From the NCBI GenBank assembly GCA_965224715.1, contig OZ245054.1:1300334-1364333 (forward strand): a stretch of DNA of 64,000 nucleotides, written 5' to 3'. The DNA comes from Spirochaetota bacterium. GTDB taxonomy: Bacteria > Spirochaetota > UBA12135 > COTS27 > CAXSBA01. Of the stretch, positions 12,843 to 42,757 are shown one piece after another (position 1 is the stretch's first letter; each line of letters begins with the position of its first letter). The notes beneath the pieces were generated by a model. That model was not told the origin of the DNA and made no database searches. It saw only the letters and a list, made by a program, of their open reading frames with translations. The translations under genes and the position numbers were made by a program.

Positions 12843-12900
12843 AAAGTTCCTATATTTAAATTGAGTTATTGTAAGTTTATTTCAGCATCCATTTACAAGA

Positions 12901-13272: not shown

Positions 13273-13298
13273 GATAAATCCTTAAAATAATATTTAAA

Positions 13299-13505: not shown

Positions 13506-13542
13506 TAATATATGTTCCCTTTAAATAATATTTTTTTAAATA

Positions 13543-14154: not shown

Positions 14155-14405
14155 TCATTTCGGGGAATTCCGAATCCTTATAATAATAAATTTACATCAT
14201 TTAAGAATGTTATGATAATTATAATATAAATACAAATATTTTCAAGTATATTTTTTTGAAAACTATGATTTTAACGTCTGAGTTTAAGAAGTAAACTTAA
14301 ATAGATTTCTTTTCTTTATTTAAACTAATAACTTTGATCTAGATATTTTTACTTATGAACTTTAGTAAATTTTTTAATTATCCGGTTAGAACGTTGAATT
14401 TAGAC

Positions 14406-14434
14406 TTGATTTTTTTAACTATATATGCTATAAT
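14406..14434 (+). promoter_or_regulatory. Candidate sigma-70 promoter for rpoD (TTGATT-N17-TGcTATAAT)
   Basis: TTGATT is at 14406-14411, followed by a 17-nt spacer and an extended -10 TGcTATAAT ending at 14434, about 130 nt upstream of the rpoD ATG. Confidence 0.5.
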
Positions 14435-14563
14435 AGATAGTACAGGCAGTTGTTGTAAATTCTAGATTCATTAAAATTTTTAATAAACTTTTATTTTTTT
14501 CGTTTAATTTTGTCTATTTTATTTATAGTAGCCAAACATATATAATTTTGTAAGAGGTAATTT

Positions 14564-16330: not shown

Positions 16331-16434
16331 ATCAATAACTTTCTTATAGTTTATAAAAATGAATTGTCGGAATGATTACCCGTATCATGGATTATCCAGA
16401 CAATGTTAATTTAAGTATGAAAGGTTTTATTAAA

Positions 16435-19647: not shown

Positions 19648-19747
19648 ATGATTTAATGAAATTTAATTATATAATAAATCTATCTGTTGATGTTCAGTAA
19701 ATAAATTTACTATATGTTATAATAATTAAAGGCTGAACAAGGTTAAT

Positions 19748-20908: not shown

Positions 20909-20996
20909 TTTATTATCGGAAACATCTGTAATGAAGTATTCCATATAAAGTATATTTAAGTGGTAAGAAAACATGAATTGAGTATTATTTATTTCA

Positions 20997-22043
20997 ATGG
21001 ATTATTTTACTGGTTTAAGTTTTATTATTTGTTATCGTAATAAGGATGATATAAGGCCAACCTTGTCGTCTATTCGTGAGAGTTTTGCAAAGCTAAATAC
21101 AAATAATGTTAATTATGAGATCATAACAGTTAGCGGAAATCATCCTTCATTACAGAGAAATAATGCGGTTAATTTTGCTCGTTACTCACACTTGTATTTT
21201 CTAGATAATGATTCGATCATCAATCATGAAAGTTTAGAATGTATCATTTTAAAATTAAATTCTTCAGAGGGAAAGAAAATAGCTATTATAGGAGGGCCGG
21301 CACTCCTTCCTAGTCAAGCTAGCAACTTTGAATTTTGTATTGATGGATTATTAGGAAGCTATCCTGTAGTAGGTCGACGCTCAGCTCGTTACTCTCGAAA
21401 AGGGAAAGAGATTATTACAAGTGGAAGTGAACTGATTTTATGCAATATGGTTGTTAATAAAAGATGTTTCATTGAAATTGGACGTTTCGACTACCGCCTT
21501 TATCCTAATGAAGAAAACGAATTTATATCTAGAGTGTATAAATCTCAGGGACGCATCCTTTATTCACCTATGATTAATGTTGAACGACATCAGCGAAAAA
21601 GCTATATAGCTTTTATTCAGCAGATGATCAATTATGGGAGAGGAAAAGCAGAAGAACTAAAAATTAAATGGTCTCAAATCCAATTATTTGGTTTACGTGT
21701 ATTTTGTTTATTATTTTTAATTTTATTACTGACTTTGTTAGTTAGTTTTTTGATGAATTTAGATATAATCTCTTATAAAAAAGATGATATAGGAATATTT
21801 GTTGGCAACGTCGGGGAATGGTTGCAGCATATTGTTTTATGGTATTTTATTTATTTAGTCTGGGTAACGACTCGTACTTCTGCTATAAAAAAGAAAATTT
21901 TATATCATGTTCCTATTTTGTTATTTCTACTACATACATGCTATGGGTTTGGGTTTAGCTATTATCTTTATAAAAGATATTTTTTTAGTAAAAAAAAACT
22001 TTTTTGGTTTAAAATAACGTCATGTAATGATGATGTTCGATAA
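20997..22043 (+). CDS. GT2-like glycosyltransferase with C-terminal transmembrane region
   Basis: LSFIICYRN...YEIITVSG....QRNNA and YFLDNDS form a DxD-like GT-A core. The C-terminal ~100 aa are hydrophobic helices. Confidence 0.55.
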   Translation: MDYFTGLSFIICYRNKDDIRPTLSSIRESFAKLNTNNVNYEIITVSGNHPSLQRNNAVNFARYSHLYFLDNDSIINHESLECIILKLNSSEGKKIAIIGGPALLPSQASNFEFCIDGLLGSYPVVGRRSARYSRKGKEIITSGSELILCNMVVNKRCFIEIGRFDYRLYPNEENEFISRVYKSQGRILYSPMINVERHQRKSYIAFIQQMINYGRGKAEELKIKWSQIQLFGLRVFCLLFLILLLTLLVSFLMNLDIISYKKDDIGIFVGNVGEWLQHIVLWYFIYLVWVTTRTSAIKKKILYHVPILLFLLHTCYGFGFSYYLYKRYFFSKKKLFWFKITSCNDDVR

Positions 22044-22148
22044 TTTTTGAATCTTAAGTTTATTTATTTTAAGGATCTATGATATCTGTATCAAGATCAT
22101 ATTCATCATTACTACCATATTGGCTAATTCTATCTAAATAGGCTTCCA

Positions 22149-23705
22149 CTAGGGGTTGATTGGGATCAAGATATATAGACTCTTGCCAATAGCGTTGAGC
22201 GAATTCATAAAAACCAATCTTATAATAAGTGCTACCGATAATATTTTAATTCTAGTATTGTAAGGATCAATTTCCTCTAACTGATGTAATTTTTTCAATA
22301 CCAAGCTGTATTCTTTTTTCAAAAATAGTTTTCGAATTTGAGCTAACTCTAAACCAATATTGTAGTTATATTTTTTTCTAATTTTCTCAAACTCCTTTTG
22401 ATATCGTGAATCTATTCCATTATAATAGTCAGTCAGTCCTTTATTATTATTACTGTCTTTAGATGTCTCTTCATTTTTACGAGGGGAAATTTTCTCCCCG
22501 ATATTAGTAATGATGATTACATTAACAGTATTCTTATTAATGTCAGGAAAGGACTTTAAAATACTTTTCAGTAATCCTACAGATTTTTTATAGTATCCCT
22601 CATCATCTTTTTGGCTGTCATATGGTTGACTTTCTACAGGTTTATCGGGTGGACGAATCTTTCTATCGCCATAAATTAAATCATAAAGTAAAGGGAGCTT
22701 GATAATAAAATCATGAAAAAAGTCTGAATTTTTATTAGTTATATAGTTATTAGACGGTTTTTTAATAATACGAAGTGCTTCTTGATTGAGAATACTTCTA
22801 TAAGTATCTTCCCAGTCATCGGTTTTTATCTCATTTTTTTTTATTTCCCTTTTTTTAGAATTATTTCTTTCTTTAGAAAAGAACTGATCTAAAAGATTGG
22901 TTAAATTGTAAAGATTAAGATTGATATTGTTGTTATTGATGTTACTAGTATCTTGTGTATTCAGTCTGCTACTTGGAGCACTATCTTGAGGATTGAAATT
23001 ATTGTTGGGGTTCTGGTCTGTCTTTAGGGAATCAATATCAAAAGCTTGGGTATCACTTTTTGGTGACTGTTTGTGGGGATTATTATCATAATAAAGTGGT
23101 GGTTTTTTTGAAATATCGTCTATTTCTAAACGATTGGACTTTGAGCTATAACTACCTCTCAATGAACTGTCAGTTGGAGTACGTAATGATTGATTGACTG
23201 GAATAGGTGAAGGAATGTATGCTTGAGATTGCTCATAAATAATAATATTAATAGGAAAACTTTTTAGAGTCTGATTAATGGGAGTTTCACGGAATGATAG
23301 AGAATCACTATTATCTCTTAGAAATAAAGAAGTGGAAGTATTGCGGAGGTTTTGGTTATTAGGAATTCCTCTTGAATATTGATTGTAGTACCCTATATTT
23401 CTTTCTTCTTCAATACTATTATTTAAATTAATAGATTCCTTTTCATTATTGTTTTTATTTGATTTATTGTGAAATAAATTATCATTCTTTTGATGATTTT
23501 TATTGGCCTTAAATCTTTTGTCAGCCTTAAATTTAAATGTAAAGTCGTTTTGATTTTGAGATACTTTTGACAGTTTATTGTATTTAATAATCTTCTCATC
23601 ACTAGGTTTAATTAAATTCCCATTCCTTTGAAGGGTTTGGGCAAAAACTAGACTAATAAAAAGTAGCAATAGTAAATAATTTTTTATATTATGTTTTGAT
23701 TTCAT
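22149..23705 (-). CDS. Secreted Asn/Ser-rich low-complexity protein with C-terminal TPR-like region; apparent frameshift near its 3' end
   Basis: The N-terminal signal-like segment is LLLLFISLVFAQ, followed by a long N/S/Q-rich region. The TPR-like reading continues in another frame to a stop at 22069-22071 (see findings). Confidence 0.5.
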   Translation of the reverse strand: MKSKHNIKNYLLLLLFISLVFAQTLQRNGNLIKPSDEKIIKYNKLSKVSQNQNDFTFKFKADKRFKANKNHQKNDNLFHNKSNKNNNEKESINLNNSIEEERNIGYYNQYSRGIPNNQNLRNTSTSLFLRDNSDSLSFRETPINQTLKSFPINIIIYEQSQAYIPSPIPVNQSLRTPTDSSLRGSYSSKSNRLEIDDISKKPPLYYDNNPHKQSPKSDTQAFDIDSLKTDQNPNNNFNPQDSAPSSRLNTQDTSNINNNNINLNLYNLTNLLDQFFSKERNNSKKREIKKNEIKTDDWEDTYRSILNQEALRIIKKPSNNYITNKNSDFFHDFIIKLPLLYDLIYGDRKIRPPDKPVESQPYDSQKDDEGYYKKSVGLLKSILKSFPDINKNTVNVIIITNIGEKISPRKNEETSKDSNNNKGLTDYYNGIDSRYQKEFEKIRKKYNYNIGLELAQIRKLFLKKEYSLVLKKLHQLEEIDPYNTRIKILSVALIIRLVFMNSLNAIGKSLYILIPINP

Positions 23706-23723
23706 AGTAAATGACTTTTTTTC

Positions 23724-24737
23724 TTAAAATTCAAATCGATAGAAAAAACCACAATAGATAGCTTTCTCGTCTGTTCCTAATCCAGTAAAATCGAATTCTG
23801 TGAATATTGCGTAGTCTCTATTGATAATCACAGCAATACCGGGTCGACCAGTCATACTAATGAGAGGAGTATTGGCCGCATAACTTAGAATATGATTAAT
23901 GTTGTAGTTAAAATTTATTCCGGTTCGAACATATAAAGGTAGTTCAACGTTTTTATATAATACATTAAATATGTTAATCAAGTCAATAGCAATCTTTATT
24001 CCTCCAGCCAAACCAAAGCCAAGAATGTTGTCAGTTGAATCGTTTGGATATAATATATTAGCACTGGGATCAGCATAAAAACCAAAATCAACAAAGTTAA
24101 AAATTTTCCAGTCAAAGCCAAGATGGATGTTAAGTGGATACATATTATTTTGAACCGATGTCCCACCAAAGGTGATACCTTGATAAAATCCCAAATTAAA
24201 TGATGTTGTTCCCTTCCTTAAAATTGTTGACCATTTTTTACCCCATATAATATTATGTTCTTTAGCATTTTTTATAATTAGAGTTAAAGCTATGGTTTTT
24301 CCCACTACAGATAAGTTGATAATGGCATAGTAGTCGGAATAGAGTTCGGTGCTGAATCTTTCCATTTCTGCTAATTGTTCAGGAGTGTACAACTCTAATC
24401 CGGAATCTACGGGGATAGTCTTATTTAAAGCTTCAATTGAACCAACTAGATGAAAAAATTTGTTCTCTAGTCTTATCTCTTCAAAACTTTTGAGAATTAG
24501 AGTTCGGTACTTATCGTCAACTGTAATTCCGGTTGATTCAAAACGAGTGATAGCCACTCGTTCATTGAGTTTGTTATCCAATATAACTTCTTTGATATCT
24601 TTTTTTGCTCTTTTAATTAGAATCTGTAAATATGGGAAAAGATCAACAGTGACTTCTTGGGTGGGGATTTGTGACCATAAAGTTGATGCTAAAATAAATA
24701 ATGATATTAATAAATATTTTATTGATACTTTTAGCAT
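23724..24737 (-). CDS. Hypothetical exported protein, possible outer-membrane beta-barrel
   Basis: A signal peptide (LLISLFILASTLWSQ) is present. The C-terminal half has alternating aromatic/glycine beta-strand-like segments and the protein ends ...GFFYRFEF. Confidence 0.4.
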   Translation of the reverse strand: MLKVSIKYLLISLFILASTLWSQIPTQEVTVDLFPYLQILIKRAKKDIKEVILDNKLNERVAITRFESTGITVDDKYRTLILKSFEEIRLENKFFHLVGSIEALNKTIPVDSGLELYTPEQLAEMERFSTELYSDYYAIINLSVVGKTIALTLIIKNAKEHNIIWGKKWSTILRKGTTSFNLGFYQGITFGGTSVQNNMYPLNIHLGFDWKIFNFVDFGFYADPSANILYPNDSTDNILGFGLAGGIKIAIDLINIFNVLYKNVELPLYVRTGINFNYNINHILSYAANTPLISMTGRPGIAVIINRDYAIFTEFDFTGLGTDEKAIYCGFFYRFEF

Positions 24738-24768
24738 TGTTATTTTATCGACATGATTTTTTTTTAAA

Positions 24769-25587
24769 TTAGTGTTTTTTGTTTATTATAAAATATGTTA
24801 ATACTTTAAATAGGTATTCTGGTTGTTCATAGTGAAGCCAATGCCCTGAATTTGGAATCATTTTTATATTAACCTTAGAAAAATTTTCAAAAATCTTTTT
24901 TTTATCAGCATCGCTAATATATACACTATTTTCACCACCAACAAAGAGGGTGTTGATATCTACTTTTGATATTAGATCTATTTTTTTACCTAGAAAGTTT
25001 ATTTTTTCTTTTAAAATTTTCATGTTGCATCGCCACTTCATTTTTGGGAATATGATCAAATTCTTTAGCAAGAAGTCAACTAAAAGAGGATGATTTAAAT
25101 GGGGTAGAACTTCATGCTTTACTTCTTCACGCGACTTATAATCCTGTAGATTGATTTGAGACAAAATTTTAATTATTTTGTGGGCTTCTTTTATATCTCG
25201 ATGACTGGGAGTCATATCTAAGATGATCAGTTTCTTCACTTTTTCAGGATAGTTGACAGTGAATTGTATGGCGGTCTTTCCTCCCATTGAATGTCCACAG
25301 AGTATGACTTTATCAATACCCCTTGTTTCAAGCATTTGATAAATATCACTGGCCATAATAGAGTAACTTATCTCTTCACTATGTGGAGATTGCCCGTGGT
25401 TTCTGAGATCAGGGAGAAAGACATTGTATCCTATTTTTGTGAATTTCCTAGCAAATAACTTTAAGTTGGTGCCAGAGCCTAGAAACCCATGAAGAAAAAC
25501 TATTTTATTACATACTAAGGTAGCTAAATTCTTCCCTGGACTTTGCTTTGAGAGTTCTGCGGGCAAGTATTCGTAAAATAAATCCAT
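24769..25587 (-). CDS. Alpha/beta-fold hydrolase (YbfF-like esterase)
   Basis: The motifs are HGFLGSG, DLRNHGQSPH, the nucleophile elbow GHSMGG and a C-terminal GHW.H. Confidence 0.7.
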   Translation of the reverse strand: MDLFYEYLPAELSKQSPGKNLATLVCNKIVFLHGFLGSGTNLKLFARKFTKIGYNVFLPDLRNHGQSPHSEEISYSIMASDIYQMLETRGIDKVILCGHSMGGKTAIQFTVNYPEKVKKLIILDMTPSHRDIKEAHKIIKILSQINLQDYKSREEVKHEVLPHLNHPLLVDFLLKNLIIFPKMKWRCNMKILKEKINFLGKKIDLISKVDINTLFVGGENSVYISDADKKKIFENFSKVNIKMIPNSGHWLHYEQPEYLFKVLTYFIINKKH

Positions 25588-25643
25588 GCTATTGAGTTAT
25601 CTTTAGAAAGATCGCTTTAATTCAAATGCCGTACTTTTTATGC

Positions 25644-27254
25644 TTAGAAACAGGTAGCTATTAAACCACGGGTATAGGGACTTTGAGGATTCTGGAAAAT
25701 GTCCTCTTTAAAACCACTTTCAATAATTTTGGATTTCTTTATCACGATTACCCAATCAGAGATAGCTTTAATAACTCGAAGGTCATGGCTAATAAAAATA
25801 TAAGACAGTCCTCTTTTTTCCTGAAGTTGGAGAAGAAATTCTATTACTTGTTTTTGTAAGGCCACATCTAATGAGGAAGTGGGTTCGTCAAGAAGAACAA
25901 TGTCTGGTTTCAAGATCAAAGTCCGGGCAAGATGGATCCTTTGGCGTTGCCCTCCAGAAAATTCATGAGGATAACGTTTCCGGGCACTAAGGGGCAATTC
26001 AACTTCTGTCATTACCGCTTCAACTTTTAAACGTTTTTTTTCAGAGTTCATGTTTGGATAATGAATTTCTAACCCCTCACCGATAATCTCTTCTATCTTC
26101 AAACGAGGATTCAGTGAAGAATAAGAGTCTTGAAATACTACCTGGATATTTTTCCTGATTTTCTTGAGTTCAGATTTGTTCAATGAATTGATTTTTACTC
26201 CATGGTAAAGAATGTCGCCACGAGAACGGATTAGTCTAAGAATGGCCATTAAAAGAGTACTTTTCCCAGATCCCGATTCACCGATAATACCTAAGGTTCT
26301 TCCTTTAATCAGGGTGAAAGATGCACTTGTCACTCCGGGATTTTCACGTATAATCCTTTTAAGAAATGGAGACTTCACAGGATAGGTTGCGGTGAGCTGA
26401 TCTACTTTAAGAATGGGTTCACCATCATAGCTTCTCTGAGGAAGGGGAAATGGCATATTGTGAAATAGTTTTCGAGTATAAGCATCCAGTGGTCTTTCGA
26501 TAATTTCCTTAGTCTTACCTTGCTCAATGATTATTCCATCCTTCATCACCACAATATAATCAGCAATTTTTCGAATCAAGGTTAAATCATGAGTAACAAA
26601 AAGCAAAGAAAGTTTAAAGGTTTGCTTCAACTCCTTAAGAAGGTCAATGATTCGACTTTCTACAGTGGCATCCAAGGCGGTTGTAGGCTCATCGGCTATA
26701 AGGAGACGAGGGCGATTGACCAAAGCCATCGCTATCATGACCCTTTGTCTTTCACCTCCAGAGAGTTCATGGGGGAAACGACTTAAGAAATTCTCTGAAC
26801 TCTTCATGCCAACCTTGGTTAAAATATCAATAGTTTTCTTCACTTTTTGAGAATTAGTGACTGAACTTTTTTTCCCATTACGGATATTCTCACTTATCTG
26901 TTTTAAGATGGTATGAGTGGGATTTAGTGATGTCATAGGATCTTGGAAAATCATCCCTATTTCCTGACTACGGATTTTACGTAGTTCCTTTTCAGAAAGG
27001 TCGATAATATCCTTTCCCTGGAATAGTATTTTTCCAGAAAAATTTAATAGTTGATTAGAGTTAATAAGTCGAAGGATCGAGAGGGCAGTCACAGATTTTC
27101 CAGAACCGGATTCTCCCACGATACCTACAGTCTGATAGGGGAAAATGTTAAAACTGATATTTTTCAACTGCCAATTATTTGATTGTTGAGTATTATTAAA
27201 GCTGAGGCAGAGTTTGCTTATTTCTAACAAAGGAGAAGAAGAATCAGTAGTCAT
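25644..27254 (-). CDS. ABC transporter ATP-binding protein with duplicated ATPase domains (YejF-like)
   Basis: There are two Walker A sites (GESGSGKS twice), two ABC signatures (LSGGERQR, FSGGQRQR) and two Walker B sites (LLIADEPTTALD, VLLDEPTSSLD). Confidence 0.85.
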   Translation of the reverse strand: MTTDSSSPLLEISKLCLSFNNTQQSNNWQLKNISFNIFPYQTVGIVGESGSGKSVTALSILRLINSNQLLNFSGKILFQGKDIIDLSEKELRKIRSQEIGMIFQDPMTSLNPTHTILKQISENIRNGKKSSVTNSQKVKKTIDILTKVGMKSSENFLSRFPHELSGGERQRVMIAMALVNRPRLLIADEPTTALDATVESRIIDLLKELKQTFKLSLLFVTHDLTLIRKIADYIVVMKDGIIIEQGKTKEIIERPLDAYTRKLFHNMPFPLPQRSYDGEPILKVDQLTATYPVKSPFLKRIIRENPGVTSASFTLIKGRTLGIIGESGSGKSTLLMAILRLIRSRGDILYHGVKINSLNKSELKKIRKNIQVVFQDSYSSLNPRLKIEEIIGEGLEIHYPNMNSEKKRLKVEAVMTEVELPLSARKRYPHEFSGGQRQRIHLARTLILKPDIVLLDEPTSSLDVALQKQVIEFLLQLQEKRGLSYIFISHDLRVIKAISDWVIVIKKSKIIESGFKEDIFQNPQSPYTRGLIATCF

Positions 27255-31601: not shown

Positions 31602-33546
31602 ATGAAGAAAACAAATCAAGTAAAATTATATAGAAAGTTGCATAAAAACAGCATAGAGCCCTCTACTCTATGATCTGTTTACTGCTGATCGGGCTTCTCC
31701 TATCCTGTGGGGAATCAAATAATGTAGGCACTATTCTCCCAGCAGAGATTATGATTCTCTGGAGGTCCCGTCTTTTTCTGTTTTAGATGGAAGTTAAAGT
31801 CAAATTAATGAAAGTGACACCGATGCCATACCGGTGGATGCCTCATTTTTATTAGCATTTGAACAATCACTAGGGAATATGGCTAATCATGTCAACTCTT
31901 TAGCTAATCAAATAGAACTCCTAGGCATTGAAGGAGGAGGAGAAAGGGACACTGTTTCGTTTTTAGCTTATCAAGCAGAACCCGTAAATGACAAACACCG
32001 GAATCATGAGAGAAGAGAGAGTACCCCCATTACTTTTTAAAGGTTGTACCTACTGAAATATCTAATCAGGTAAGAATAGTTCCAGACGGTTATTTAAGAG
32101 GCAATACTACCTATCAATTAACTTTAAAGAAAGGCTTAATCATCGGTAACTTTCAGATTACTAATGATATAACCTACTCCGTCACCACTGGCATTGGCAA
32201 GCAGTATCAGGTTAGATTTTACCAGGGAAACAGTCTCCCGGGAACTGTTCCGATTGATAATTTGACTACGATCCCCGCATCGAACTATCCTGTTTCCTCT
32301 ATATCAGGAAAGGCGTATAGGTGGTATAGTGATGATGCTTTAACTCAAGTCTACGATATAAGTGCCCAAGTGACTAGTAATCTTGATCTTTATGCTAAGA
32401 TTATTTCAGGTTTCCAGAAAATCATCGAAGATGGAACCATTCCCTCTGATCTCGCTAATTATGGAGAAATGAGTGAGCTGATTTTCTCTAGATATACTGA
32501 AGGAGCTAGTGTGATCGCCCGTTATGTTAAGGAAACTACATCTGGTAATTGGCAATGGAAGTTCTTGGGCTAATGCTGCTAACGATATAAAGGCGATGAT
32601 AAATGGGATCAATGATGCTGGAGCAAATAAAGTTTATGTGGTACTGGTGGCATCAGGAACTTATAAGCCGGATACTAGTTATCCTATGAAGAACCATGTA
32701 GCCTTAGTAGGTGGCTTCATGGCTGATAGCTACCATCAAGCAGAAGAAACTCGGCTTGATGGTAGTGGAACTCACGGGAGCGTGTTCAGACATGTAGAGT
32801 ACGGTAACAACAGTAGTTTGAATAGCACAGTTCTTCTCTATGGAGTGTCCATTGTCAATGGTATTGGGAGAGGAGCTGGAATGAATACTTATAACTTTTC
32901 CCCCACCTTGATCAATGTTACTTTCTCAGGCAATAAGGCCAATAATGGTGGAGGAGGGATCTATCATGATGGTAACGGACGGCCACTTACCCTGATAAAT
33001 GCGATCTTGTGGAATAATAATGGACAGATTTATTTGAAAAATGGTACCGTCGATAAAGAAACTTTGAATTTGTATTACTCCCGTATTTCTGGAGGGGTTA
33101 ATGCTTCTGTCACTATAAGAGGAATTCGTTTGCATGCTAGTAGAGGTTCCCATCCGGTTATCATCAATAGTGAGTAGGTTATTGGTGAAGGTCCCATACT
33201 AGGTATCTTGGCTGATAATGGAGGTGAAATCAACATCATCTCCATCGGCAACAATAGCCCGGCCAAGGATAAGGGAGTCTATGTGAGTAGGAGGGGGGGG
33301 GGGGGGGGGGCTGAAAATCCTTATCCGGAAGCCAATCTTTATTACAGTATAGACAATGCTGACTGGCATAGCGATCCCGGTTTGACGACACAAGAGAGTC
33401 CGCCAAACAATGCCGATGATCTTACCTCCACCGATGCCCGTGGATATGGTCGGGTAGGTCGCCCAGATATGGGAGCCTATGAAGCGGGGTACACAGTAAA
33501 TTTTCTCTTGTTCTTTGAGAGAAGTAGGAGAAGGATAGGGGATTAG
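31602..33546 (+). pseudogene. Decayed paralog of the 38716..41835 surface lipoprotein (frameshifts, nonsense codon, ~1 kb internal deletion)
   Basis: ORF fragments 31834..32040, 32262..32573, 32524..33177 and 33208..33546, plus untracked pieces, align colinearly with the 1,039-aa protein. The signal peptide/lipobox region is frame-broken at about 31670. Further shifts lie at about 32035 and about 32550, and an in-frame TAG is at 33175-33177. The middle Ig/Flg_new region is missing (TNDITYSVTTG joins directly to KQYQVRFYQG). Confidence 0.85.
33293..33310 (+). repeat. Homopolymeric G18 tract inside the pseudogene
   Basis: I counted 18 consecutive G directly. The tract replaces the RGVKNEIG-coding segment of the intact paralog. 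Confidence 0.95.
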
Positions 33547-33682
33547 CTCTCAATTACGGGAGTGGCGGGAGTGATATTTTTATTCAATTTGTAGTCTTCT
33601 CTGACCCCCTTTGACTTCATTGGGGAGTTAGAGGGAAATCTGCGAATATTTTGACTGGAGCCATAATTGTATAATAATTGGC

Positions 33683-33895
33683 ATTTACTTAAAAATCAAG
33701 AAACAGAAAGTCAGATTTATATAATATGTCAATTCTCTGCGTATCTTCCGCATTCTTTACAGTTATACCTCCAGTACCTCAAAATTTTTTTATTTCTTCT
33801 TTCCTTTAGTGATTTTCATTAATCGCAGAGATCGTTGAGTTTTCGTTATACCACAAGATAATATTTATTTCCTAGAAAAATTCTAAATTATTTTA
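33683..33895 (+). repeat. Intergenic repeat family, copy A (core 33805-33894)
   Basis: It aligns with 42407-42597 over its whole length and with 38411-38630. The conserved core is TTTAGTnATTTTnATTAAnCGCAGnG...TGAnTTTT..AC.GTATCACAAGATAA...CTAGAAAAATTCTAAATTATTTT. Confidence 0.8.
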
Positions 33896-33971
33896 TTTTT
33901 TTATTTTTTAAAATTTTATTCCAATAAATTTGTCTAATTTGTTTTTTGGAATCAGGACTTTATTTTTATCA

Positions 33972-34000: not shown

Positions 34001-34049
34001 TTAGACCAAATTTTTTGAATATATTTTCGACTTTATTTTGGAGGAAAAA

Positions 34050-35105
34050 ATGAAAAAACATTATTTAATTTTTGCGTTGGTAATAATATTATTAATTGCT
34101 GGATGCGGAAGTTCTAAAAAAAACAAAATTGGAGTAATGTTGCCGACATCTGGTGATGTTGCTGAATACGGTAAAGGTGCCTTAGGTGGTGTTGAACTTG
34201 CTCATAAACTGATTAATATGGATAATATTGAGCTCGTTTTAGAAGATTCCCAATGTGATGGAAAAGCTGCAGTTAACTCAATCAATAAGTTGATTTCTGT
34301 TGAAAATGTTGTGGCTATTATTGGTGAGCTTTGTTCTAGTGCAACTTTGGCTGCGGCTCCCGTAGCAGAAGAAAATCATGTGGTGCTTGTTTCTCCCGCT
34401 TCTACGAGTCCTAAAATTACAGAAGCAGGTGATTATATTTTTCGAACCATTCCCACTGATGCTCGTCAAGGGGTTTTTGCAGCTGAACTTATAAGTGATG
34501 AGGGTTATGATAAACTTGCTACCCTATATCCCAACGAAGATTATGGTAAGGGATTTAGTGAAGTGATTGAAAAGTCTTTCATTGAAATGGGGGGGGAGGT
34601 TGTTCGTTCCGAGTCTTTTGAAAGAGGGTCTACCGATGTTCGTTCCCAGCTTACCAAGATCAAAAAATCTAATCCGGATGTTCTTTTCTTGATCTCGAAT
34701 TCCCCGGATGCTGCTATTGCGGCTTTAAGGCAAATCAAAGAACTCGGAATAACTGCGGCGATTTATGGTTCGGAAGGACTTAAAGCAGATAGTATTGCCC
34801 AAGCTGATGGAGCCGAAGGCCTTATTATCACTTCAGTGAATCCAGGTAGTATCGAATTTAGCGATAATCATAATGCAGAGTTTGGTAGAGATCCGGGACC
34901 ATTTGCAGCTCAGGGTTATGATGCCTATATGGCTTTAGCAAAAGCGATTGAAGATGGGGCTACTACCGGTGAAGAAATTAAAAACAAACTTTACGAAATG
35001 TCATTTACCGGGGTAACCGGTGAAGTCGAATTCGACGAAAACGGAGATGTAGGCGGTTCCTATGATATTTATAAAGTCATAGATGGACAATTTGAGAAGT
35101 TATAA
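34050..35105 (+). CDS. Branched-chain/amino-acid ABC transporter substrate-binding lipoprotein (LivJ/LivK-like)
   Basis: I prefer the ATG at 34050, which is preceded by GGAGG, over the track start at 34038. The lipobox is LIAGC, and the type-I periplasmic binding fold blocks are IGVMLPTSGDVAEYG and IIGELCSSATLA. Confidence 0.8.
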   Translation: MKKHYLIFALVIILLIAGCGSSKKNKIGVMLPTSGDVAEYGKGALGGVELAHKLINMDNIELVLEDSQCDGKAAVNSINKLISVENVVAIIGELCSSATLAAAPVAEENHVVLVSPASTSPKITEAGDYIFRTIPTDARQGVFAAELISDEGYDKLATLYPNEDYGKGFSEVIEKSFIEMGGEVVRSESFERGSTDVRSQLTKIKKSNPDVLFLISNSPDAAIAALRQIKELGITAAIYGSEGLKADSIAQADGAEGLIITSVNPGSIEFSDNHNAEFGRDPGPFAAQGYDAYMALAKAIEDGATTGEEIKNKLYEMSFTGVTGEVEFDENGDVGGSYDIYKVIDGQFEKL

Positions 35106-35173
35106 ATTTAGTTTACTTTTTATAATTTGTTTTCTTATTCCCTAAATAATTTAGGGAATAAGATACCTTTACT

Positions 35174-36055
35174 TTGGAATACTTATTTCAATTTATCATT
35201 AATGGTGTTATAGCGGGTTCTCTTTATGCCTTGATCGCTACCGGGTTCTCAGTTATTTATAATACAAATAAATTCATTCACTTTGCCCATGGAGTGGTAT
35301 CTATCCTTGGGGGATATTTCTTCTATTCACTTAGTCAGGGATTAGGTTGGCATTATGGATTATCTGGATTAATGGCATCACTGATAACTGGAGGTATTGG
35401 AGTAGTGCTTTTTAGGGTTATTTACCTTCCCCTTAGACGGAAAAATGCAAGTAATGTTATTATGCTTCTTTCCAGTATCGCTCTTCTCATCGTTTTGCAG
35501 AATTTGATTCAGTTGATCTATGGAGAGCAGGTTAAGGTTATCGATGTGACTGCATTCAACCGATCCTATGATGTGCTTTCTGGAGTGATTACAACCGTTC
35601 AAATAATAATTATCTTTATTTGTGTTGTATTGTTTATTGGTCTTTATTTTTTAGTAAATAAAACCAGATTTGGACGATCTATGCGAGCAGTTGCTAGTAA
35701 TGAAGAATTGGCTAGTATCATAGGGATAAATGTTGAGTTGATAAAAAGTTTTTCCTTCTTTGTCGGCTCCTTTATAGGTGGGTTAGGTGGGGTTTTGATC
35801 GCTTTAGACCAAAGCCTTACTCCAACTAAGGGAGCCTTTTTTATTTTAAAAGGATTCACTGGAGCGATTATCGGAGGTCTAGAATTTGTTCCCGCTGCTA
35901 TTCTAGGATCTTATTTTCTTGGTTTGGTGGAAAATCTTTCTATCATCTATCTCCCTTCGGAACAGAAGCTGACGGTTTCCTTTTTGCTTCTTTTTATTTT
36001 TCTTATCTTCCGTCCTCATGGGTTTATGGGCTTTAATGCCGGAGGAAGACGATGA
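35174..36055 (+). CDS. Branched-chain amino-acid ABC transporter permease (LivH-like)
   Basis: The start FQFIINGVIAGSLYALIATGFSVIY is the LivH-type N-terminus. The protein is multi-TM and sits in the expected operon position. Confidence 0.8.
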   Translation: MEYLFQFIINGVIAGSLYALIATGFSVIYNTNKFIHFAHGVVSILGGYFFYSLSQGLGWHYGLSGLMASLITGGIGVVLFRVIYLPLRRKNASNVIMLLSSIALLIVLQNLIQLIYGEQVKVIDVTAFNRSYDVLSGVITTVQIIIIFICVVLFIGLYFLVNKTRFGRSMRAVASNEELASIIGINVELIKSFSFFVGSFIGGLGGVLIALDQSLTPTKGAFFILKGFTGAIIGGLEFVPAAILGSYFLGLVENLSIIYLPSEQKLTVSFLLLFIFLIFRPHGFMGFNAGGRR

Positions 36056-36963
36056 GCAGTGGTTTCTTGATTAACCTCGCTATCCTCATCAATATTTATT
36101 GCATTCTTTCGGTGAGTTTCAATCTAACTTTAGGATATACTGGGCTTATTAACCTAGGTCATATCGCATTTTATGCTTTGGGTGCCTATACTTCAGCTCT
36201 ACTTACCAAAGATGTTGTTCCTCTTTTAATGGAAGGGGGCTGGAAGGATTATCCTCAAGAAATATTTCTTCTCCTTACTATTTTTTTGGGTGGTATTTTT
36301 GCGATGTTGGTCAGCTATGCTCTTACTTATTTTATTCGTAAACTTAAAGGAGACTATCTTGCTATGGCTACTTTGAGCTTTGCTTTGGCTCTTCATAACA
36401 CCCTTCTTACATTTGACTTTCTTACTTATGGAACTTTGGGAGTTACCAATATAACCCGTCCACCCTTATTTAAAAATAATTTAGTTTTTTTATTATTTGT
36501 AACTTTGATTACAGTATTCTGTTTTGTTTTTATAAAGAAGATAGTCGATTCTCCTTTCGGTAATCTCATTCAAGCGGTGAGGGATGATGAAGTACTTTTA
36601 CGAAGTTATGGAAAGGATAGTTTTCTATTAAAAATCAAGGTTATGGGAATCTCCGCATTCTTTGCTGGTGTGGCAGGGGCTCTTTTTTCATATTATATCA
36701 GCTATATTCATCCCGATTTTTTTAATCTAAACGAAATTATCATTGTTCTCACTATTGTTATTATTGGAGGATTGGCTTCAATTAAAGGTACGGTAGTGGC
36801 AGGATTCATTGTTGTATTACTTCCAGAAATGATTCGTCTTTTAGATATTCCCCAAAACATTATGGGCCCTACTAGACAGGTGATCTATGGGCTTCTTCTG
36901 CTTATTATTCTACGTTTTTATTCACGGGGATTATTTGGTAAAGTAGACCTCCATGATTATTGA
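36052..36963 (+). CDS. Branched-chain amino-acid ABC transporter permease (LivM-like)
   Basis: LGYTGLINLGHIAFYALGAYTSA matches the LivM signature. It overlaps livH-like by 4 nt. Confidence 0.8.
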   Translation: MSSGFLINLAILINIYCILSVSFNLTLGYTGLINLGHIAFYALGAYTSALLTKDVVPLLMEGGWKDYPQEIFLLLTIFLGGIFAMLVSYALTYFIRKLKGDYLAMATLSFALALHNTLLTFDFLTYGTLGVTNITRPPLFKNNLVFLLFVTLITVFCFVFIKKIVDSPFGNLIQAVRDDEVLLRSYGKDSFLLKIKVMGISAFFAGVAGALFSYYISYIHPDFFNLNEIIIVLTIVIIGGLASIKGTVVAGFIVVLLPEMIRLLDIPQNIMGPTRQVIYGLLLLIILRFYSRGLFGKVDLHDY

Positions 36964-37687
36964 GATTAAGAATATTCACAAACAATTTGGAGGCAATGTT
37001 GCGGTGGGAAATGTATCTCTTGGAGTAGAGTTGGGAAGGATCACCTCAATCATTGGTCCTAATGGATCTGGAAAATCCACATTATTTAATATTGTTGCAG
37101 GTTTCCTCAATTCTGACTCTGGCCAAGTTAAGCTTCAAGGGTTAGATATAACAGGACTCAAAGACTTTCAAACTGCACGAAAAGGATTAGCAAGGACTTT
37201 TCAGGAAATTCGTACCTTCACTTATCTTACTGTTCGTCAACATTTTGACATTGTTTGTGATATCGATAATGAAAAGCTTATGAAGAATTTGTTGATAAAA
37301 GTAAATAATGACCGAGATGACTTTTATAAAGATCAATTAAAAAGAGTAGGACTTGAAGTTGATCTGGATACTCTTGGTAGTAATTTGAGTTATGGGCAGA
37401 GTAAACTCCTTAATCTAGCCATGTGTCTTGTCACGAGACATGAGGTCATTCTTCTTGATGAACCGGTAGCCGGTGTTAATCCACTTCTTAGGAAGCAAAT
37501 AAAGAGCATTTTACTTAAACTTCGTGATGAGTCGGAGAATATCCTTATCATTGAGCATGATATGAATTTTGTTACTGCTATCTCTGATTGGATTGTGGTG
37601 ATGGATTCAGGTAATATCATTACTGAGGGTACAGTTGATGAAATCCTTAATAATCATGATGTACTACAGGCCTATTTAGGAAGGTAG
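36953..37687 (+). CDS. Branched-chain amino-acid ABC transporter ATP-binding protein (LivG-like)
   Basis: Walker A is GPNGSGKSTLFN, the signature is LSYGQSKLLNLA and Walker B is ILLDEPVAGVN. Confidence 0.85.
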   Translation: MIIEIKNIHKQFGGNVAVGNVSLGVELGRITSIIGPNGSGKSTLFNIVAGFLNSDSGQVKLQGLDITGLKDFQTARKGLARTFQEIRTFTYLTVRQHFDIVCDIDNEKLMKNLLIKVNNDRDDFYKDQLKRVGLEVDLDTLGSNLSYGQSKLLNLAMCLVTRHEVILLDEPVAGVNPLLRKQIKSILLKLRDESENILIIEHDMNFVTAISDWIVVMDSGNIITEGTVDEILNNHDVLQAYLGR

Positions 37688-37690
37688 AAT

Positions 37691-38407
37691 ATGAGTTCAA
37701 AAAAACTTCTTTCGATCAATAGTCTTACTGCTGGATATGGAGAGGCGATCATTATTAGAGATGTTTCTATTGATCTTTATGTTGGGGAAATCGTTTCGCT
37801 TATCGGACCTAATGGTGCAGGAAAAAGTACTGTGATTAAATCGATTTTTGGAATAACTAAGGTTGAATCCGGTGATATCTTTTATCAGGGTGAGTCAATT
37901 TTGGGACTTGATTCTTTTTCTTTAGTTAAACGACGTTTGATTTATCTTAATCAAGGCCGGGTAATATTTGGCAACTTAACTGTCAAAGAAAATTTGATGT
38001 TAGCCGGTGAAATTCTTTTTCCGACAGAAGAAATCAAAAAAAAAATAGAGGATGTTCTGGAAACGTTTCCAACGCTTAAGCCTAAGTTAGATCAATTCGC
38101 ATTGTTTTTAAGTGGGGGGCAACGTCAACAGTTGGCATTAGCACGGGCATTGATTCAATGTCCGAAGATACTGTTACTTGATGAACCTACCCTAGGGTTA
38201 AGTCCAATGTTACAGAAGGAATTATTTGACAATATCGTTTTACTTCGTAAGCGAAATGTAGCTTGTTTAATGGTGGAACAGAATACCCGGACAGCGGTAA
38301 ACATTTCTGACCGTACTTATCTATTGGAAAATGGGATTGTTGCTCTTGAGGGCAGTAAGGATATTTTAGAAAATCCTATGATTAAAAAGGTGTATTTAGG
38401 CGGCTAA
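37691..38407 (+). CDS. Branched-chain amino-acid ABC transporter ATP-binding protein (LivF-like)
   Basis: Walker A is GPNGAGKST, the signature is LSGGQRQQLALARAL, Walker B is LLLDEPTLGLSP, and the C-terminus KKVYLGG is typical of LivF. Confidence 0.85.
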   Translation: MSSKKLLSINSLTAGYGEAIIIRDVSIDLYVGEIVSLIGPNGAGKSTVIKSIFGITKVESGDIFYQGESILGLDSFSLVKRRLIYLNQGRVIFGNLTVKENLMLAGEILFPTEEIKKKIEDVLETFPTLKPKLDQFALFLSGGQRQQLALARALIQCPKILLLDEPTLGLSPMLQKELFDNIVLLRKRNVACLMVEQNTRTAVNISDRTYLLENGIVALEGSKDILENPMIKKVYLGG

Positions 38408-38410
38408 TGA

Positions 38411-38630
38411 CTACATAAAAAAGAAAGATGTAAAAGTTAAAAGATTTGGAGAATTACCTTTTTCTAAAGGATATAATTTGAAGGAGGGTTTAGTATGAGC
38501 TATTCCTTTCATTATTTTTTCTATTTCTATTTTTTTAGTAATTTTCATTAACCGCAGGGCTCTCTGAGTTTTTACCGTATCACAAGATAAATTTTACTAC
38601 TTAGAAAAGATCTGAATTAATTTCATATTT
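38411..38630 (+). repeat. Intergenic repeat family, copy B (core 38534-38623; more diverged)
   Basis: The core TTTAGTAATTTTCATTAACCGCAGGGCTCTCTGAGTTTTTACCGTATCACAAGATAAATTTTACTACTTAGAAAAGATCTGAATTAATTT matches copies A and C. Confidence 0.7.
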
Positions 38631-38715
38631 TACTTGTAAAAATGTTAAAAGCATAGTATTATTTAAGTAAATATCAAAATTTAAATAAATGAAACAATTT
38701 TTTTGAAGGAAAAAC

Positions 38716-41700
38716 ATGTATATAAAAAGCAATCCAATCAAATTATATAAAAATAATATGTCTAAAGTCATTTATTCTATGCTCTGTTTACTGTTGATCG
38801 GACTTTACTTGTCCTGTGGAGTAACAGATGACGGAGGCACTGCTCCCAGTATAAGTTATGATCCTCTGGGGATCTCATCTTTTTTTGTTTTGGATGGAAC
38901 TCAAAATCTAATTAGTGAAAACGACACCAATGCCATACCGGTGGATGCTTCATTTTTATTGACATTCGATCAATCACTAGGAAATATGGATAGTTATGTC
39001 AATTCTTTAACCAGCCAAATAGAGCTACTGGACATGGGGGGGGGGGGGGGTAATCCCATCACTTTAAAGATTGAACCTACTCAAACAGCTAATCAAATAA
39101 AAATAACTCCAATAACTGATCTAAGCTACCACACCACCTATCAACTAACTGCAAAAAAAGGTTTAACTATCGGTAACTATCGGGCTACTAATGATATAAC
39201 CTACTCCATCACCACTGAAAAGAACTCCGACAGTTCTCTTATTGTCCTTCATAGCAATCAAGAGTTCTTTCCTAACGGAAACAACATTACCATGCTCTTT
39301 AAAGGAGCTGATGTAAGTAGTGTTATGTTCACTCTGGAAGTAGGTAAGGGAGCTACCCTCCAGGATGGTAATAACAAAGATCTATCATTAAATGAAAACA
39401 GACAATACACTACCAATATGGATTTCAGTGGTAATGCTACCCATAATTTTACCGTAACAGCCCAGGATGGAACTACCTCTGCCACTTATACCGTAGGAGT
39501 ATTAGAGCAACAGATGGGCAGCAAAGAGATTATCTCGTTTGCTTTTCGAGAAACAGATAATCCACTCCTGAAAGAGAATATTGCAATGGATATTGATTCT
39601 AATAATCGGGCTATAACTAAGACGGTTACCAATGTGGAAGGGATTACCGGTTTAATTCCAACTATTGTTCATAGTGGATCGAATATCTCTCCGGCATCGG
39701 GAGTGGCTCAGAACTTCTCCACGGCTAAAACCTATACAGTAACCGCAACTGATAATACTACATCCGACTACACGGTAACCCTAACCGGTTACTATGGGGC
39801 AACCTTCTATCTTAACGGGGGGGAAATTATAAACGCAGCTCCTACCACAGAATATATCCTTTATGGAGAGAAAGCTTCCCCTCCATCAGATCCATCTCAG
39901 CGACACTATGGATTCAAAGGATGGTATGATGCTCCTAGTGGAGGCAATGTTTTTGACTTCGATACTCCCATTACCACCCAAACCATAATCTATGCTCAAT
40001 GGACTAATGAGCAATACAAGGTGAGCTTTGAAACATATGCAGGAACTCCTATCCCCTCCGTAACGGTGAATAGCTTAACCCCTGTAGACAGGCCTGTTGA
40101 TCCTACCAGTGAGCATTATTATTCTTTGGAGGGTTGGTATAACAGAGCTTTCACTGACCGATATGATTTTAACTGGGTGGTAAGCAATAACTTTACCTTG
40201 TATGCGAAATATATCCACAAACAATATCAGGTTAGGTTTTACCAAGGAACTGATCTCTTAGACACTGTCTCAGTTGACGGTGTAACTACGATCCCTGCAT
40301 CGAACTATCCTACTTCTACTACTGCAAAACAATTGTATAAGTGGTATAGCGATAGTGGTTTAGCAAATGTTTACGATAAGAGTTCCCCGGTAGTCGGCAA
40401 TCTTGATCTCTATGCTAAGGTTCTTACTACAGATGGTACATTTAAGAGTATTATTGAAAATGGAGTTATCCCCTCTGATCTTGCTAACTATGATGATATA
40501 AGTAAGATGATCTTTTCTAATTATATAGCAGGAGCTGATGTGATGGCCCGTTATGTTAAGGAAACTGGTACTGGTAACAGTGACGGGAGCTCTTGGGCTA
40601 ATGCCAGTGGAGATATACAGGCGGTGGTTGATGGGATTGGTAATGCTATCGATAGTAAGATTTATGTGGTATTGGTGGCATCGGGGACTTATAAACCTAG
40701 TAGTAGTTATGCTATGAAGAACCATGTAGCTCTGGTAGGTGGTTTCACTGCTGGAAGTTCTGGAGACTATGGCCGATTGAAAGAAACCCGCCTTGATGGT
40801 AATAATGACAAGAGGGTGTTTAATAATAATCGTAATGACCTTGACAACGCTCTTCTCTATGGAGTGGTCATTACCAATGGTAATAGTATTTTTGGAGGCG
40901 GGATGTATAATTATTTTTCCTCCCCCACCTTGATCAATGTTACCTTCTCGGATAATGAGGCTAACTCTGTTGGAGGCGGGATGTATAATTATTTTTCCTC
41001 CCCCACCTTGATCAATGTTACCTTCTCAGAAAATACAGCTAGTGAGGGAGGCGGGATCTATAATGAAAATTCTTCCTCTACTTTGATCGATGTTACCTTC
41101 TCGGATAATGAGGCTAACTCTGTTGGAGGCGGGATGTATAATAATGGTTTTTTCTCCTCCACCTTGATCAATGTTACCTTCTCAGATAATGAGGCTGATT
41201 GGGGAGGCGGGATGTTTAATCGGGATTCTTCCCTCACCTTGATCAATGTTACCTTCTCGGGTAATACTGCTGATAGAGAAGGAGGCGGGATATCTCATGA
41301 TGGTAATGGACAACCACTTACCCTAATCAATACGATCTTGTGGGGTAATAATAATGGGAATATCTATTTATTGAATGATACTTCCGATACAGAAACTGTG
41401 AATTTGTATTACTCCGTTATTGAGGGATGGACTACTCCTTCCACCGCTGCAACAGGAATTCGTTTAGAAAGAGCTAATACTAGCACCTATCCTATTGAGA
41501 TTAACAGTAAGGAGGCTATTGACGATGATCCCGGACTAGGCCCCTTAGCCAATCATGGAGGTGGAATCAACACCATCTCTATCGGTAACAATAGCCCGGC
41601 CAAGGATAAGGGAGTCTATGTGAGGGGAGTGAAAAACGAAATAGGAAATCCTTATCCGGAAGCCAATCTCTATTACAGCATAGACAATACCGATTGGTAT

Positions 41701-41835
41701 AGCGATCCCGATTTGACCACACAAGAGAGTCTTCCGAACAATGCGGATGATCTTACCACCACTGATGCCCGCAGATATGGTCGGGTAGGTCGCCCGGACA
41801 TGGGGGCCTATGAAGAGGGGGGGACTGCACCGTAA
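38716..41835 (+). CDS. Large multidomain surface lipoprotein: Ig-like domains, Listeria-Bacteroides (Flg_new) repeats and a C-terminal right-handed beta-helix
   Basis: The signal peptide ends in the lipobox LYLSCG. The N-terminal Ig-like module is IPVDASFLLTFDQSL...TTYQLTAKKGL. Three Flg_new-type repeats are present (e.g. ATFYLNGG...YGFKGWYDAPSGGNVFDFDTPIT..T.IYAQW). Five tandem approximately 26-aa beta-helix coils follow (GGGMYNYFSSPTLINVTFSDNEANSV). An alternative start lies at 38758. Confidence 0.8.
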   Translation: MYIKSNPIKLYKNNMSKVIYSMLCLLLIGLYLSCGVTDDGGTAPSISYDPLGISSFFVLDGTQNLISENDTNAIPVDASFLLTFDQSLGNMDSYVNSLTSQIELLDMGGGGGNPITLKIEPTQTANQIKITPITDLSYHTTYQLTAKKGLTIGNYRATNDITYSITTEKNSDSSLIVLHSNQEFFPNGNNITMLFKGADVSSVMFTLEVGKGATLQDGNNKDLSLNENRQYTTNMDFSGNATHNFTVTAQDGTTSATYTVGVLEQQMGSKEIISFAFRETDNPLLKENIAMDIDSNNRAITKTVTNVEGITGLIPTIVHSGSNISPASGVAQNFSTAKTYTVTATDNTTSDYTVTLTGYYGATFYLNGGEIINAAPTTEYILYGEKASPPSDPSQRHYGFKGWYDAPSGGNVFDFDTPITTQTIIYAQWTNEQYKVSFETYAGTPIPSVTVNSLTPVDRPVDPTSEHYYSLEGWYNRAFTDRYDFNWVVSNNFTLYAKYIHKQYQVRFYQGTDLLDTVSVDGVTTIPASNYPTSTTAKQLYKWYSDSGLANVYDKSSPVVGNLDLYAKVLTTDGTFKSIIENGVIPSDLANYDDISKMIFSNYIAGADVMARYVKETGTGNSDGSSWANASGDIQAVVDGIGNAIDSKIYVVLVASGTYKPSSSYAMKNHVALVGGFTAGSSGDYGRLKETRLDGNNDKRVFNNNRNDLDNALLYGVVITNGNSIFGGGMYNYFSSPTLINVTFSDNEANSVGGGMYNYFSSPTLINVTFSENTASEGGGIYNENSSSTLIDVTFSDNEANSVGGGMYNNGFFSSTLINVTFSDNEADWGGGMFNRDSSLTLINVTFSGNTADREGGGISHDGNGQPLTLINTILWGNNNGNIYLLNDTSDTETVNLYYSVIEGWTTPSTAATGIRLERANTSTYPIEINSKEAIDDDPGLGPLANHGGGINTISIGNNSPAKDKGVYVRGVKNEIGNPYPEANLYYSIDNTDWYSDPDLTTQESLPNNADDLTTTDARRYGRVGRPDMGAYEEGGTAP
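39036..39050 (+). repeat. Homopolymeric G15 tract, in frame (encodes Gly5) in the intact lipoprotein gene
   Basis: I counted it directly as gacatGGGGGGGGGGGGGGGtaat. It is translated as LLDMGGGGGNPI. Confidence 0.95.
40894..41289 (+). repeat. Five tandem ~78-bp coding repeats (beta-helix coils) with near-identical DNA
   Basis: Units start with GGAGGCGGG at 40894, 40972, ~41048, 41126, 41205 (and 41281). The first two units are almost identical at the nucleotide level. Confidence 0.85.
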
Positions 41836-42259: not shown

Positions 42260-42368
42260 AAATCACAAATCACAAATCACAAATCACAAATCACAAATCA
42301 CAAATCACAAATCACAAATCACAAATCACAAATCACAAATCACAAATCACAAATCACAAATCACAAAT
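42260..42368. repeat. Heptanucleotide microsatellite (CACAAAT), ~15.5 units
   Basis: A perfect 7-bp periodicity runs over 109 bp. It generates the artefactual ITNHKSQ x5 ORF at 42202..42405. Confidence 0.95.
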
Positions 42369-42406: not shown

Positions 42407-42597
42407 ATTTACTAAAAATAAAGAAATAGAAAGCCAGATTTATATATGATATGTAAATTTTTGTGTATCTCTGCAGTTCTATCTCCATTCAAAATTTTTC
42501 TATTTTTTAGTAATTTTTATTAACCGCAGAGGTTGTTGATTTTTTTTACTGTATCACAAGATAAACTTTATTATCTAGAAAAATTCTAAATTATTTT
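42407..42597 (+). repeat. Intergenic repeat family, copy C (core 42506-42597)
   Basis: It aligns end to end with copy A (33683-33895) and ends with the same CTAGAAAAATTCTAAATTATTTT. Confidence 0.8.
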
Positions 42598-42757
42598 GTA
42601 TTTGAGAACTGTCAATAATTTATAATAATCAAGTATCTATTGAAGTCATGGAAGTATTTCCATGAGGATTATTACAAGCTAATTACAATTAAAACATATT
42701 ATTTCTCTATGTGATATTTTTTTGTATAGTTCTATACAGAAACTCATAACTTCAAAA

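Follow-up and report, generated by a model that had tools for sequence, protein, structure and literature searches.

A pure G15 run as a candidate ON/OFF switch in a predicted surface lipoprotein family of an uncultured spirochaete

Does a pure run of 15 G near the start of a spirochaete gene act as a translational ON/OFF switch? The run, G15, lies in a predicted surface lipoprotein gene within a 64,000-nt stretch of a Spirochaetota genome (contig OZ245054.1, positions 1,300,334 to 1,364,333; hereafter the window, in whose coordinates all positions are given). We think that it probably does: G15 is likely to be a switch worked by slipped-strand mispairing, with about 14–15 equivalents in all within a family of more than 30 PMP-like lipoprotein genes specific to its lineage. 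A first-pass annotation had proposed it as a candidate slipped-strand ON/OFF switch, and we come to the same view from a long pure tract in frame, stops within 0–5 codons in the off-frames, at least 14 paralogs with the tract, inferred lengths of G15–G19, and nine apparently OFF copies that are open downstream. The mechanism itself is well known; what is new is the gene family and the lineage that hosts it.

38716..41835, + strand: intact family gene of 1,039 codons, encoding a predicted surface lipoprotein (open reading frame list, translation, Pfam)
39036..39050, + strand: G15 homopolymer, the proposed slipped-strand switch (sequence, run-length census, slippage simulation)

Read directly from positions 39030–39055, the run is exactly 15 G on the + strand, in the context GGACATG-[G15]-TAATCCC. 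The ATG of Met107 takes its last base from the run, and GGG GGG GGG GGG GGT then encodes Gly108–112. The run therefore occupies codons 107–112 of the 1,039-codon open reading frame (ORF), 320 nt into it, in frame and currently ON. The observation is confirmed: sequence and translation agree with the earlier placement of the run some 107 codons into the gene, encoding five glycines in frame. A translational contingency locus is expected to carry a homopolymer of at least about 8 nt inside an ORF near its 5′ end, and G15 is such a tract. By contrast, the run-length census found no long G run in the upstream region (38408–38715), where a promoter poly-G of the Treponema pallidum type would lie.

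A run of this length stands far outside the local composition. The window is 33.3% GC (G fraction 0.177), and the numbers of its G runs decay smoothly over lengths 1 to 8 (6685, 1591, 337, 79, 16, 1, 4 and 1); beyond length 8 there are just two outliers, G15 and a G18 at 33293–33310. From the window counts, about 7e-7 runs of G or C of at least 15 nt are expected by chance on both strands together, and a chance origin of G15 was rejected. An Illumina-type poly-G artefact was rejected as well, the run being internal, in frame and at a homologous codon across 15 copies. Nor does a need for glycine explain the purity of the run, because GGG is a minor codon (14.5% of Gly codons in the 44 other window ORFs) which G15 uses four times, and because the Gly-Gly-Gly triplets in the PMP repeats of the same gene are spelled GGA-GGC-GGG in six of six cases.

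What slippage would do to the gene was read by replacing G15 in silico with G12 to G19 and translating the result. With G12, G15 or G18 the frame is read through to a product of 1,038–1,040 aa. G13, G16 and G19 give an immediate stop (tails MGGGG-stop, MGGGGG-stop and MGGGGGG-stop), while G14 and G17 give a stop five codons on (tail ...VIPSL-stop).

39051..39053, + strand: TAA stop used by G13, G16 and G19 in the simulation; the short paralog ORFs P0241, P0250, P0251 and P0252 (MGGGGG-stop) and P0249 (MGGGGGG-stop), introduced below, end identically
39065..39067, + strand: TAA stop used by G14 and G17 in the simulation; the short paralog ORF P0245 ends MGGGGGVIPSL-stop

Length changes that are not multiples of three thus truncate the product in both off-frames, at +0 or +5 codons, as a contingency locus would require. 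The first-pass annotation had held that a change of one or two G would truncate the protein just after the first immunoglobulin (Ig)-like module; the simulation bears out the truncation, whereas the structure model described below places it inside the first Ig-like domain.

The paralogs provide a comparison in which several of these lengths appear to be realized. A protein search with the window protein returned 27 relatives (48–86% identity); every one is encoded on a single 2,112,975-bp contig, and the search gave no close match from any other source. Cluster look-ups brought in further members. One protein of that contig, P0248, is identical to the window ORF from Met15 (38758), so the window belongs to the paralogs' genome, a genome of 2,112,975 bp in which the family numbers more than 30 genes. 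In fifteen copies, the window gene included, a Gly run comes after ...QIELL(D/N)M at the same codon: it is pure and read through in five and interrupted in one, and the other nine copies are split into two ORFs. The read-through copies comprise the window gene, P0001 and P0007 with MGGGGGNP (...LLDMGGGGGNP), and the variants P0002 (MWGGGGGNP) and P0008 (MGGGGGCNP); the interrupted run, MGGRGGNP in P0009, is likewise read through. Because other family members carry short non-G loops at this site (VDN, MEGSLID, TGNTGNGILPLPF) or have no N-domain, the tract marks one subfamily. The nine short ORFs of the split copies, recovered by a search with the N-terminal 192 aa, end as follows.

P0241, P0250, P0251, P0252: short ORFs ending MGGGGG-stop, inferred G16
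P0249: short ORF ending MGGGGGG-stop, inferred G19
P0245: short ORF ending MGGGGGVIPSL-stop, inferred G17
P0244: short ORF ending ...GGGGGESHHFKD-stop, inferred G17, then AATCC
P0243: short ORF ending ...GGGGGQPHYFKG-stop, inferred G16, then CAACC
P0246: short ORF ending ...GGGGGGQSHYFKG-stop, inferred G19, then CAATCC

The tails MGGGGG-stop, MGGGGGG-stop and MGGGGGVIPSL-stop match exactly what the simulation gave for the window gene at G16, G19 and G17, and those of P0244, P0243 and P0246 are out-of-frame readings of NPITLK(I/V)E. Alongside the short ORFs there are nine downstream ORFs that lack the N-terminus, each of 821–957 aa without a stop. Eight of them start at the first ATG past the tract (MLFKG... 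or MFTLEVG...; P0004, P0006, P0011, P0014, P0253, P0019, P0020 and P0021) and the ninth, P0016, starts at the tract itself. With nine short and nine open downstream ORFs, nine genes can be taken as broken in two at the tract and, judging from their proteins, nowhere else. In the annotation, each of these nine family genes appears as two ORFs.

Tract length therefore varies among otherwise intact copies, as expected of contingency loci and here at the level of paralogs only, with G15, G16, G17 and G19 inferred across 14 copies. The variation is fast relative to its surroundings: P0241 and P0249 each differ from the window gene at one of 92–93 upstream residues, yet their inferred lengths are G16 and G19, and thus the tract changes much faster than its flanks.

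The split copies contrast with a decayed family member that lies elsewhere in the window and carries the second long tract.

31602..33546, + strand: decayed paralog (pseudogene), recognized by paralog alignment, with several frameshifts and in-frame stops, and lacking about 1 kb from the middle
33293..33310, + strand: second long tract, G18, in the pseudogene at a site other than that of G15, locally in frame (SRRGGGGGAENPYPE)

With its many stops and deletions, this pseudogene is unlike the nine OFF copies, whose downstream ORFs are unbroken. At the tract site it reads GGAGGAGGAGAAAGGG plus about 78 extra bases. The pseudogene had been cited earlier as having an interrupted GAAGGAGGAGGAGAAAGGG at this position, from which the pure run was taken to be derived. 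The GAAGGAGGAGGAGAAAGGG is indeed present, but because some 78 extra bases come next the site is not simply an interrupted version of the run, and the comparison alone does not show which state is derived. The G18 occupies a variable loop, RGVK(x)nGNPYPE, near the C-terminus, where the intact gene reads GAGGGGAGTGAAAAACGAAATAGG (loop RGVKNEIG); a Gly run at this second site is absent from all retrieved paralog proteins.

Which product would be switched is indicated by its predicted modules: two N-terminal Ig-like domains, a DUF5018-like region, three Flg_new repeats and PMP-type beta-helix repeats.

38716..38817, + strand: signal peptide with the lipobox-like end ...LLLIGLYLS-C34 (translation read by eye)
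38857..39216, + strand: first Ig-like (Big_5-type) domain, which holds the tract loop (weak Pfam Big_5 match, residues 68–156; AlphaFold2)
40892..41265, + strand: tandem 78-nt (26-aa) PMP-type repeats GGGM..N...LINVTFSxN, 4.8 copies (repeat scan, Pfam)

A Shine-Dalgarno-like AGGA precedes the ATG at 38716 by 6–7 nt. The leader, K..K..KNNMSKVIYSMLCLLLIGLYLS-C34, is basic and then hydrophobic, and the motif LLLIGLYLSC(G/T) is kept in more than 20 paralogs. Pfam scores Flg_new at 69 bits over the three repeats and Chlam_PMP (PF02415) at 30.6 bits against a cut-off of 20.6, with weak matches to Big_5 and DUF5018. The protein also carries the GGA(I/L/V)/FxxN signature of PF02415, with seven GG[GA][MIVL] and five TF[SL]xN motifs at a 26-aa period. 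No Pfam match at E <= 0.01 was found in it for the PMP middle domain or the C-terminal autotransporter beta-barrel, and its C-terminus lies about 150 aa past the last PMP repeat. The earlier picture of a lipobox combined with Ig/Flg_new modules and a beta-helix is thus largely upheld, Flg_new and Chlam_PMP by Pfam and the Ig-like fold by modelling, while the lipobox was read by eye and has non-canonical residues at −3/−2 (Y, L). PMP-repeat copy number varies among the paralogs, which range from 795 to 1,328 aa; this spread, which owes most to the number of repeats and to whether Ig and Flg_new modules are present, gives the family a second way to vary.

An AlphaFold2 model of residues 36–260, built from an alignment of 16 family members (mean predicted local distance difference test score, pLDDT, 86.8), shows two tandem beta-sandwich domains, the strands of the first spanning model residues 13 to 132. 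In the model MGGGGG forms a tight hairpin loop between the strands IELLD (102–106) and NPITLKIEP (113–121), with a pLDDT of 77 for the tract-loop block against 88 and 91 for its flanks. A loop placed between strands in this way should tolerate the gain or loss of one Gly. Foldseek with the model returned generic tandem Ig folds only (SbsC S-layer protein, Fabs).

Taken together, these observations suggest a simple cycle. Replication slippage would add G's to the run or remove them. Lengths of 3n (15, 18) would be read through to the full 1,039-aa protein, with the tract as a Gly5–6 hairpin loop in the first Ig-like domain, and other lengths would stop 0 or 5 codons on, leaving a lipoprotein stub of about 112–117 aa without the Ig, Flg_new and beta-helix ectodomain. 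If the paralogs switch one by one and independently, a population would come to hold many combinations of expressed members. In Campylobacter jejuni, tracts of G8 to G11 switch at rates that rise with length from 4e-4 (G8) to 4e-3 (G11) per division (PMC3401435), and by extrapolation tracts of G15–19 should be at least as unstable. Switching would then occur within a living population at a useful rate; the product would be exposed at the cell surface, and switching might serve evasion of host or phage, or a change of adhesion. A bolder form of this reading would make the 14–15 tracts in one Ig-domain loop a combinatorial switchboard of up to about 2^14 surface states, and the same G runs would also serve as hot spots of G-quadruplex formation or recombination by which the 30+ paralogs exchange modules, so that one element drives both phase variation and segmental antigenic variation; this we regard as unlikely.

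Several points weigh against a working switch. The tract lengths of the paralogs were inferred from protein tails and not from DNA, and the start of P0016, MGNPITLK, is not reconciled with a pure tract. The single 2.1-Mb contig implies a long-read assembly, for which runs of 15–19 are the hardest to call; eight of the nine OFF copies are displaced by +1 from an in-frame length and only one by −1, a skew that systematic over-calling might produce. Five of the 14 pure tracts are ON, close to the expectation for random lengths, and hence there is no sign of selection on state. The modal tract of C. jejuni, G9, is far shorter than G15–19, and long tracts tend to shrink in that species (PMC3401435), which makes their maintenance here puzzling. 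Finally, lipidation and surface exposure of the window protein are predictions only, made from its sequence.

Some of these points can be read as an assembly artefact, in which the tracts are real and simply a Gly loop spelled with G's, their true lengths are all in frame (e.g. G15 or G18), and the consensus over-calls one G in many copies, so that the OFF copies would not truly be off. The excess of exactly +1 copies and the probable use of long reads both fit such an error, and a like doubt has been raised over the chlamydial pmp poly-G tracts (PMC3323650). However, the inferred lengths run from G15 to G19, with G17 and G19 each occurring twice, which exceeds a uniform +1 error on one length, and a need for glycine would leave the rare-codon purity of the run unexplained. 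Nor is the assembly generally poor at homopolymers, since all 40 of the 40 runs of 8–10 nt inside window ORFs leave the frame intact. In addition, pure runs of G15–18 are intrinsically unstable in every bacterium measured (PMC3401435), so that an artefact would alter the current states rather than the mechanism. We consider this explanation decidedly unlikely.

Neutral decay would account for the same tracts as slippage-prone accidents in a small, AT-rich and probably host-associated genome, with the OFF copies as young pseudogenes of a vanishing family that have no adaptive reversibility. The family does contain real pseudogenes (window 31602–33546 and the fragments P0242, P0247 and P0259), the G18 is located in a dead copy, and an ON fraction of about one third matches random lengths. 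Yet all nine OFF copies keep 821–957 unbroken downstream codons at 33% GC, despite 15–35% mutual divergence, and therefore either selection on the frame continues or all nine were inactivated very recently. AT-biased mutation should also soon interrupt runs of G15–19, whereas interruptions are seen only in P0009 and perhaps in P0002 and P0008, and the tract occupies the identical codon in 15 copies. We find neutral decay very unlikely.

A structural role was weighed next. A single run needs at least 15 G, the length seen here, to fold into an intramolecular G-quadruplex (GGG-G-GGG-G-GGG-G-GGG), and the tracts could promote gene conversion among the 30+ paralogs and thereby segmental antigenic variation, with the frameshifted copies as silent donors. 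G-quadruplex-forming DNA has been linked to pilin variation in Neisseria, and a similar part has been suggested for it at Borrelia vls and T. pallidum tprK. In the window, the alignment of the two paralogs breaks exactly at both long G runs, each at an indel junction, and the family looks mosaic, signal peptides of the types MKQIFR..., MPRVTYF... and MNIKN... being joined to the same mature N-domain. Both junctions are, however, also plain variable surface loops, and the family does not consist of promoterless cassettes around one expression site, each OFF copy having retained its start, signal peptide and upstream ORF. Such recombination is in any case compatible with frameshift switching, and as the main role of the tracts seems very improbable indeed. 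Transcriptional slippage, in which RNA polymerase stutters on the 15–19-nt run to give mixed mRNAs from each copy and DNA length sets the expression level rather than an ON/OFF state, is scarcely credible as the whole explanation: the polymerase is known to slip on long homopolymers, which in some endosymbionts restores frameshifted genes, and the tracts here are longer than the RNA–DNA hybrid, but it is best documented for A/T runs and weaker for G/C, and it would add to switching at the DNA level, not replace it.

A translational switch in the DNA has precedents, of which the chlamydial pmp family appears to be the nearest by protein type. Long runs of G occur in the pmp genes, and separate sequencing efforts differ over frameshifts in them (PMC3323650). 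Like the spirochaete genes, they form a large paralogous surface-protein family with GGA(I/L/V)/FxxN beta-helix repeats (PF02415 is above its cut-off in the window protein), in which several members have a long poly-G that sets the gene in or out of frame (PMC3323650). Unlike them, the window protein has neither the PMP middle domain nor the C-terminal autotransporter barrel and is not a Pmp autotransporter; it has instead a predicted N-terminal lipid anchor with Ig-like, DUF5018-like and Flg_new modules, its host is a spirochaete, and the tract is found at one conserved codon in about 15 copies.

In having many independently switching copies of one family, the system resembles Neisseria Opa. 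These are multicopy surface adhesins that switch independently through a 5′ coding repeat and are expressed in combinations; they differ in that the repeat is a pentamer, CTCTT, in the signal-peptide coding region, that the proteins are beta-barrels of the outer membrane, and that there are 4–12 copies. C. jejuni, with 29 polyG/C loci in NCTC11168, resembles the spirochaete in having many independent intragenic G/C homopolymers that switch surface-related genes by 1-nt slippage (PMC3401435, PMC4965091); its modal tract is G9 against G15–19, and its tracts lie in unrelated genes rather than at a homologous site in one paralogous family. T. pallidum is itself a spirochaete in which poly-G length varies the expression of outer-membrane proteins (PMC7864442). 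In its tpr subfamily II, tprL and tp0126, poly-G length varies within isolates and alters the expression of the putative outer-membrane proteins (PMC7864442), but these G7–G13 tracts lie in promoters and act on transcription, whereas G15 is intragenic and acts on frame, and the proteins are unrelated.

The host is an uncultured, deep-branching spirochaete. Compared with its RpoD, the proteins of three Logan contigs are 97%, 85% and 77% identical, those of Spirochaetota metagenome-assembled genomes about 50% and that of Brachyspira 38%. The closest relative found is the Logan contig L002 (SRR14371711, 22,307 bp), which has the 97% RpoD and is syntenic with window 10020–25845 at 91% nucleotide identity; it contains no long G run and does not reach the G15 locus. 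The end of L002 extrapolates to about window position 31,400, just ahead of the pseudogene, as might be expected if the assembly broke at a repeated family gene. The family appears lineage-specific: a full HMMER scan of 1.84 billion representative proteins found the N-terminal module in none outside the host genome, a GTDB genome scan with the window protein gave only an unrelated 28% match, JGI metagenome scans with a DNA pattern of the tract flanks and with the family alignment gave no match, and no further copy of the G15 locus was found in collection scans or in exact-protein look-ups for the window gene, its alternative start, P0001 and a neighbouring LivF-like gene.

If the switch is confirmed, about 4% of a 2.1-Mb spirochaete genome would be given to one PMP-like lipoprotein family, with about half of the family under identical poly-G frameshift switches. 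This would be strong genomic evidence for a lifestyle exposed to hosts, phages or predators and met with stochastic surface variation, and would mean that the association of PMP repeats with poly-G known from Chlamydia has been re-invented independently. In practical terms, tract lengths in long-read assemblies need checking at the level of reads; errors in long homopolymers could misassign some ON/OFF states.

Some further features of the locus and its surroundings were recorded. The sole other window G run longer than 7 is a G8 at 34589–34596, in frame in the periplasmic binding protein gene of a branched-chain amino-acid ABC transporter operon (34038–38407). Upstream of the window gene, at 38689–38715, there is an ATG whose frame ends at a stop (ATGAAACAATTTTTTTGA, with a T7 run); several paralogs have this frame open, with the extension MKQIFR(R/S/G)KNM, so that the gene start may also differ between copies.

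38500..38625, + strand: conserved upstream family element, possibly a promoter region, repeated at about 42470–42600 and about 33790–33900

This element of about 100–130 nt (...TTTAGTAATTTTCATTAACCGCAGAG...TATCACAAGATAAA...TAGAAAAATTCTAAATTATTTT) lies upstream of the intact gene and also downstream of both family copies, and could be a family promoter region left from former tandem arrays; in a promoter and terminator scan of the window, promoter-like matches were no commoner than in shuffled sequence. The homologous region downstream of the pseudogene (about 33560–33640) lacks an array that is found at 42260–42368, in the intergenic space downstream of the family gene. That array is a perfect heptanucleotide tandem repeat, (AAATCAC) x 15.6, and may be another hypermutable repeat.

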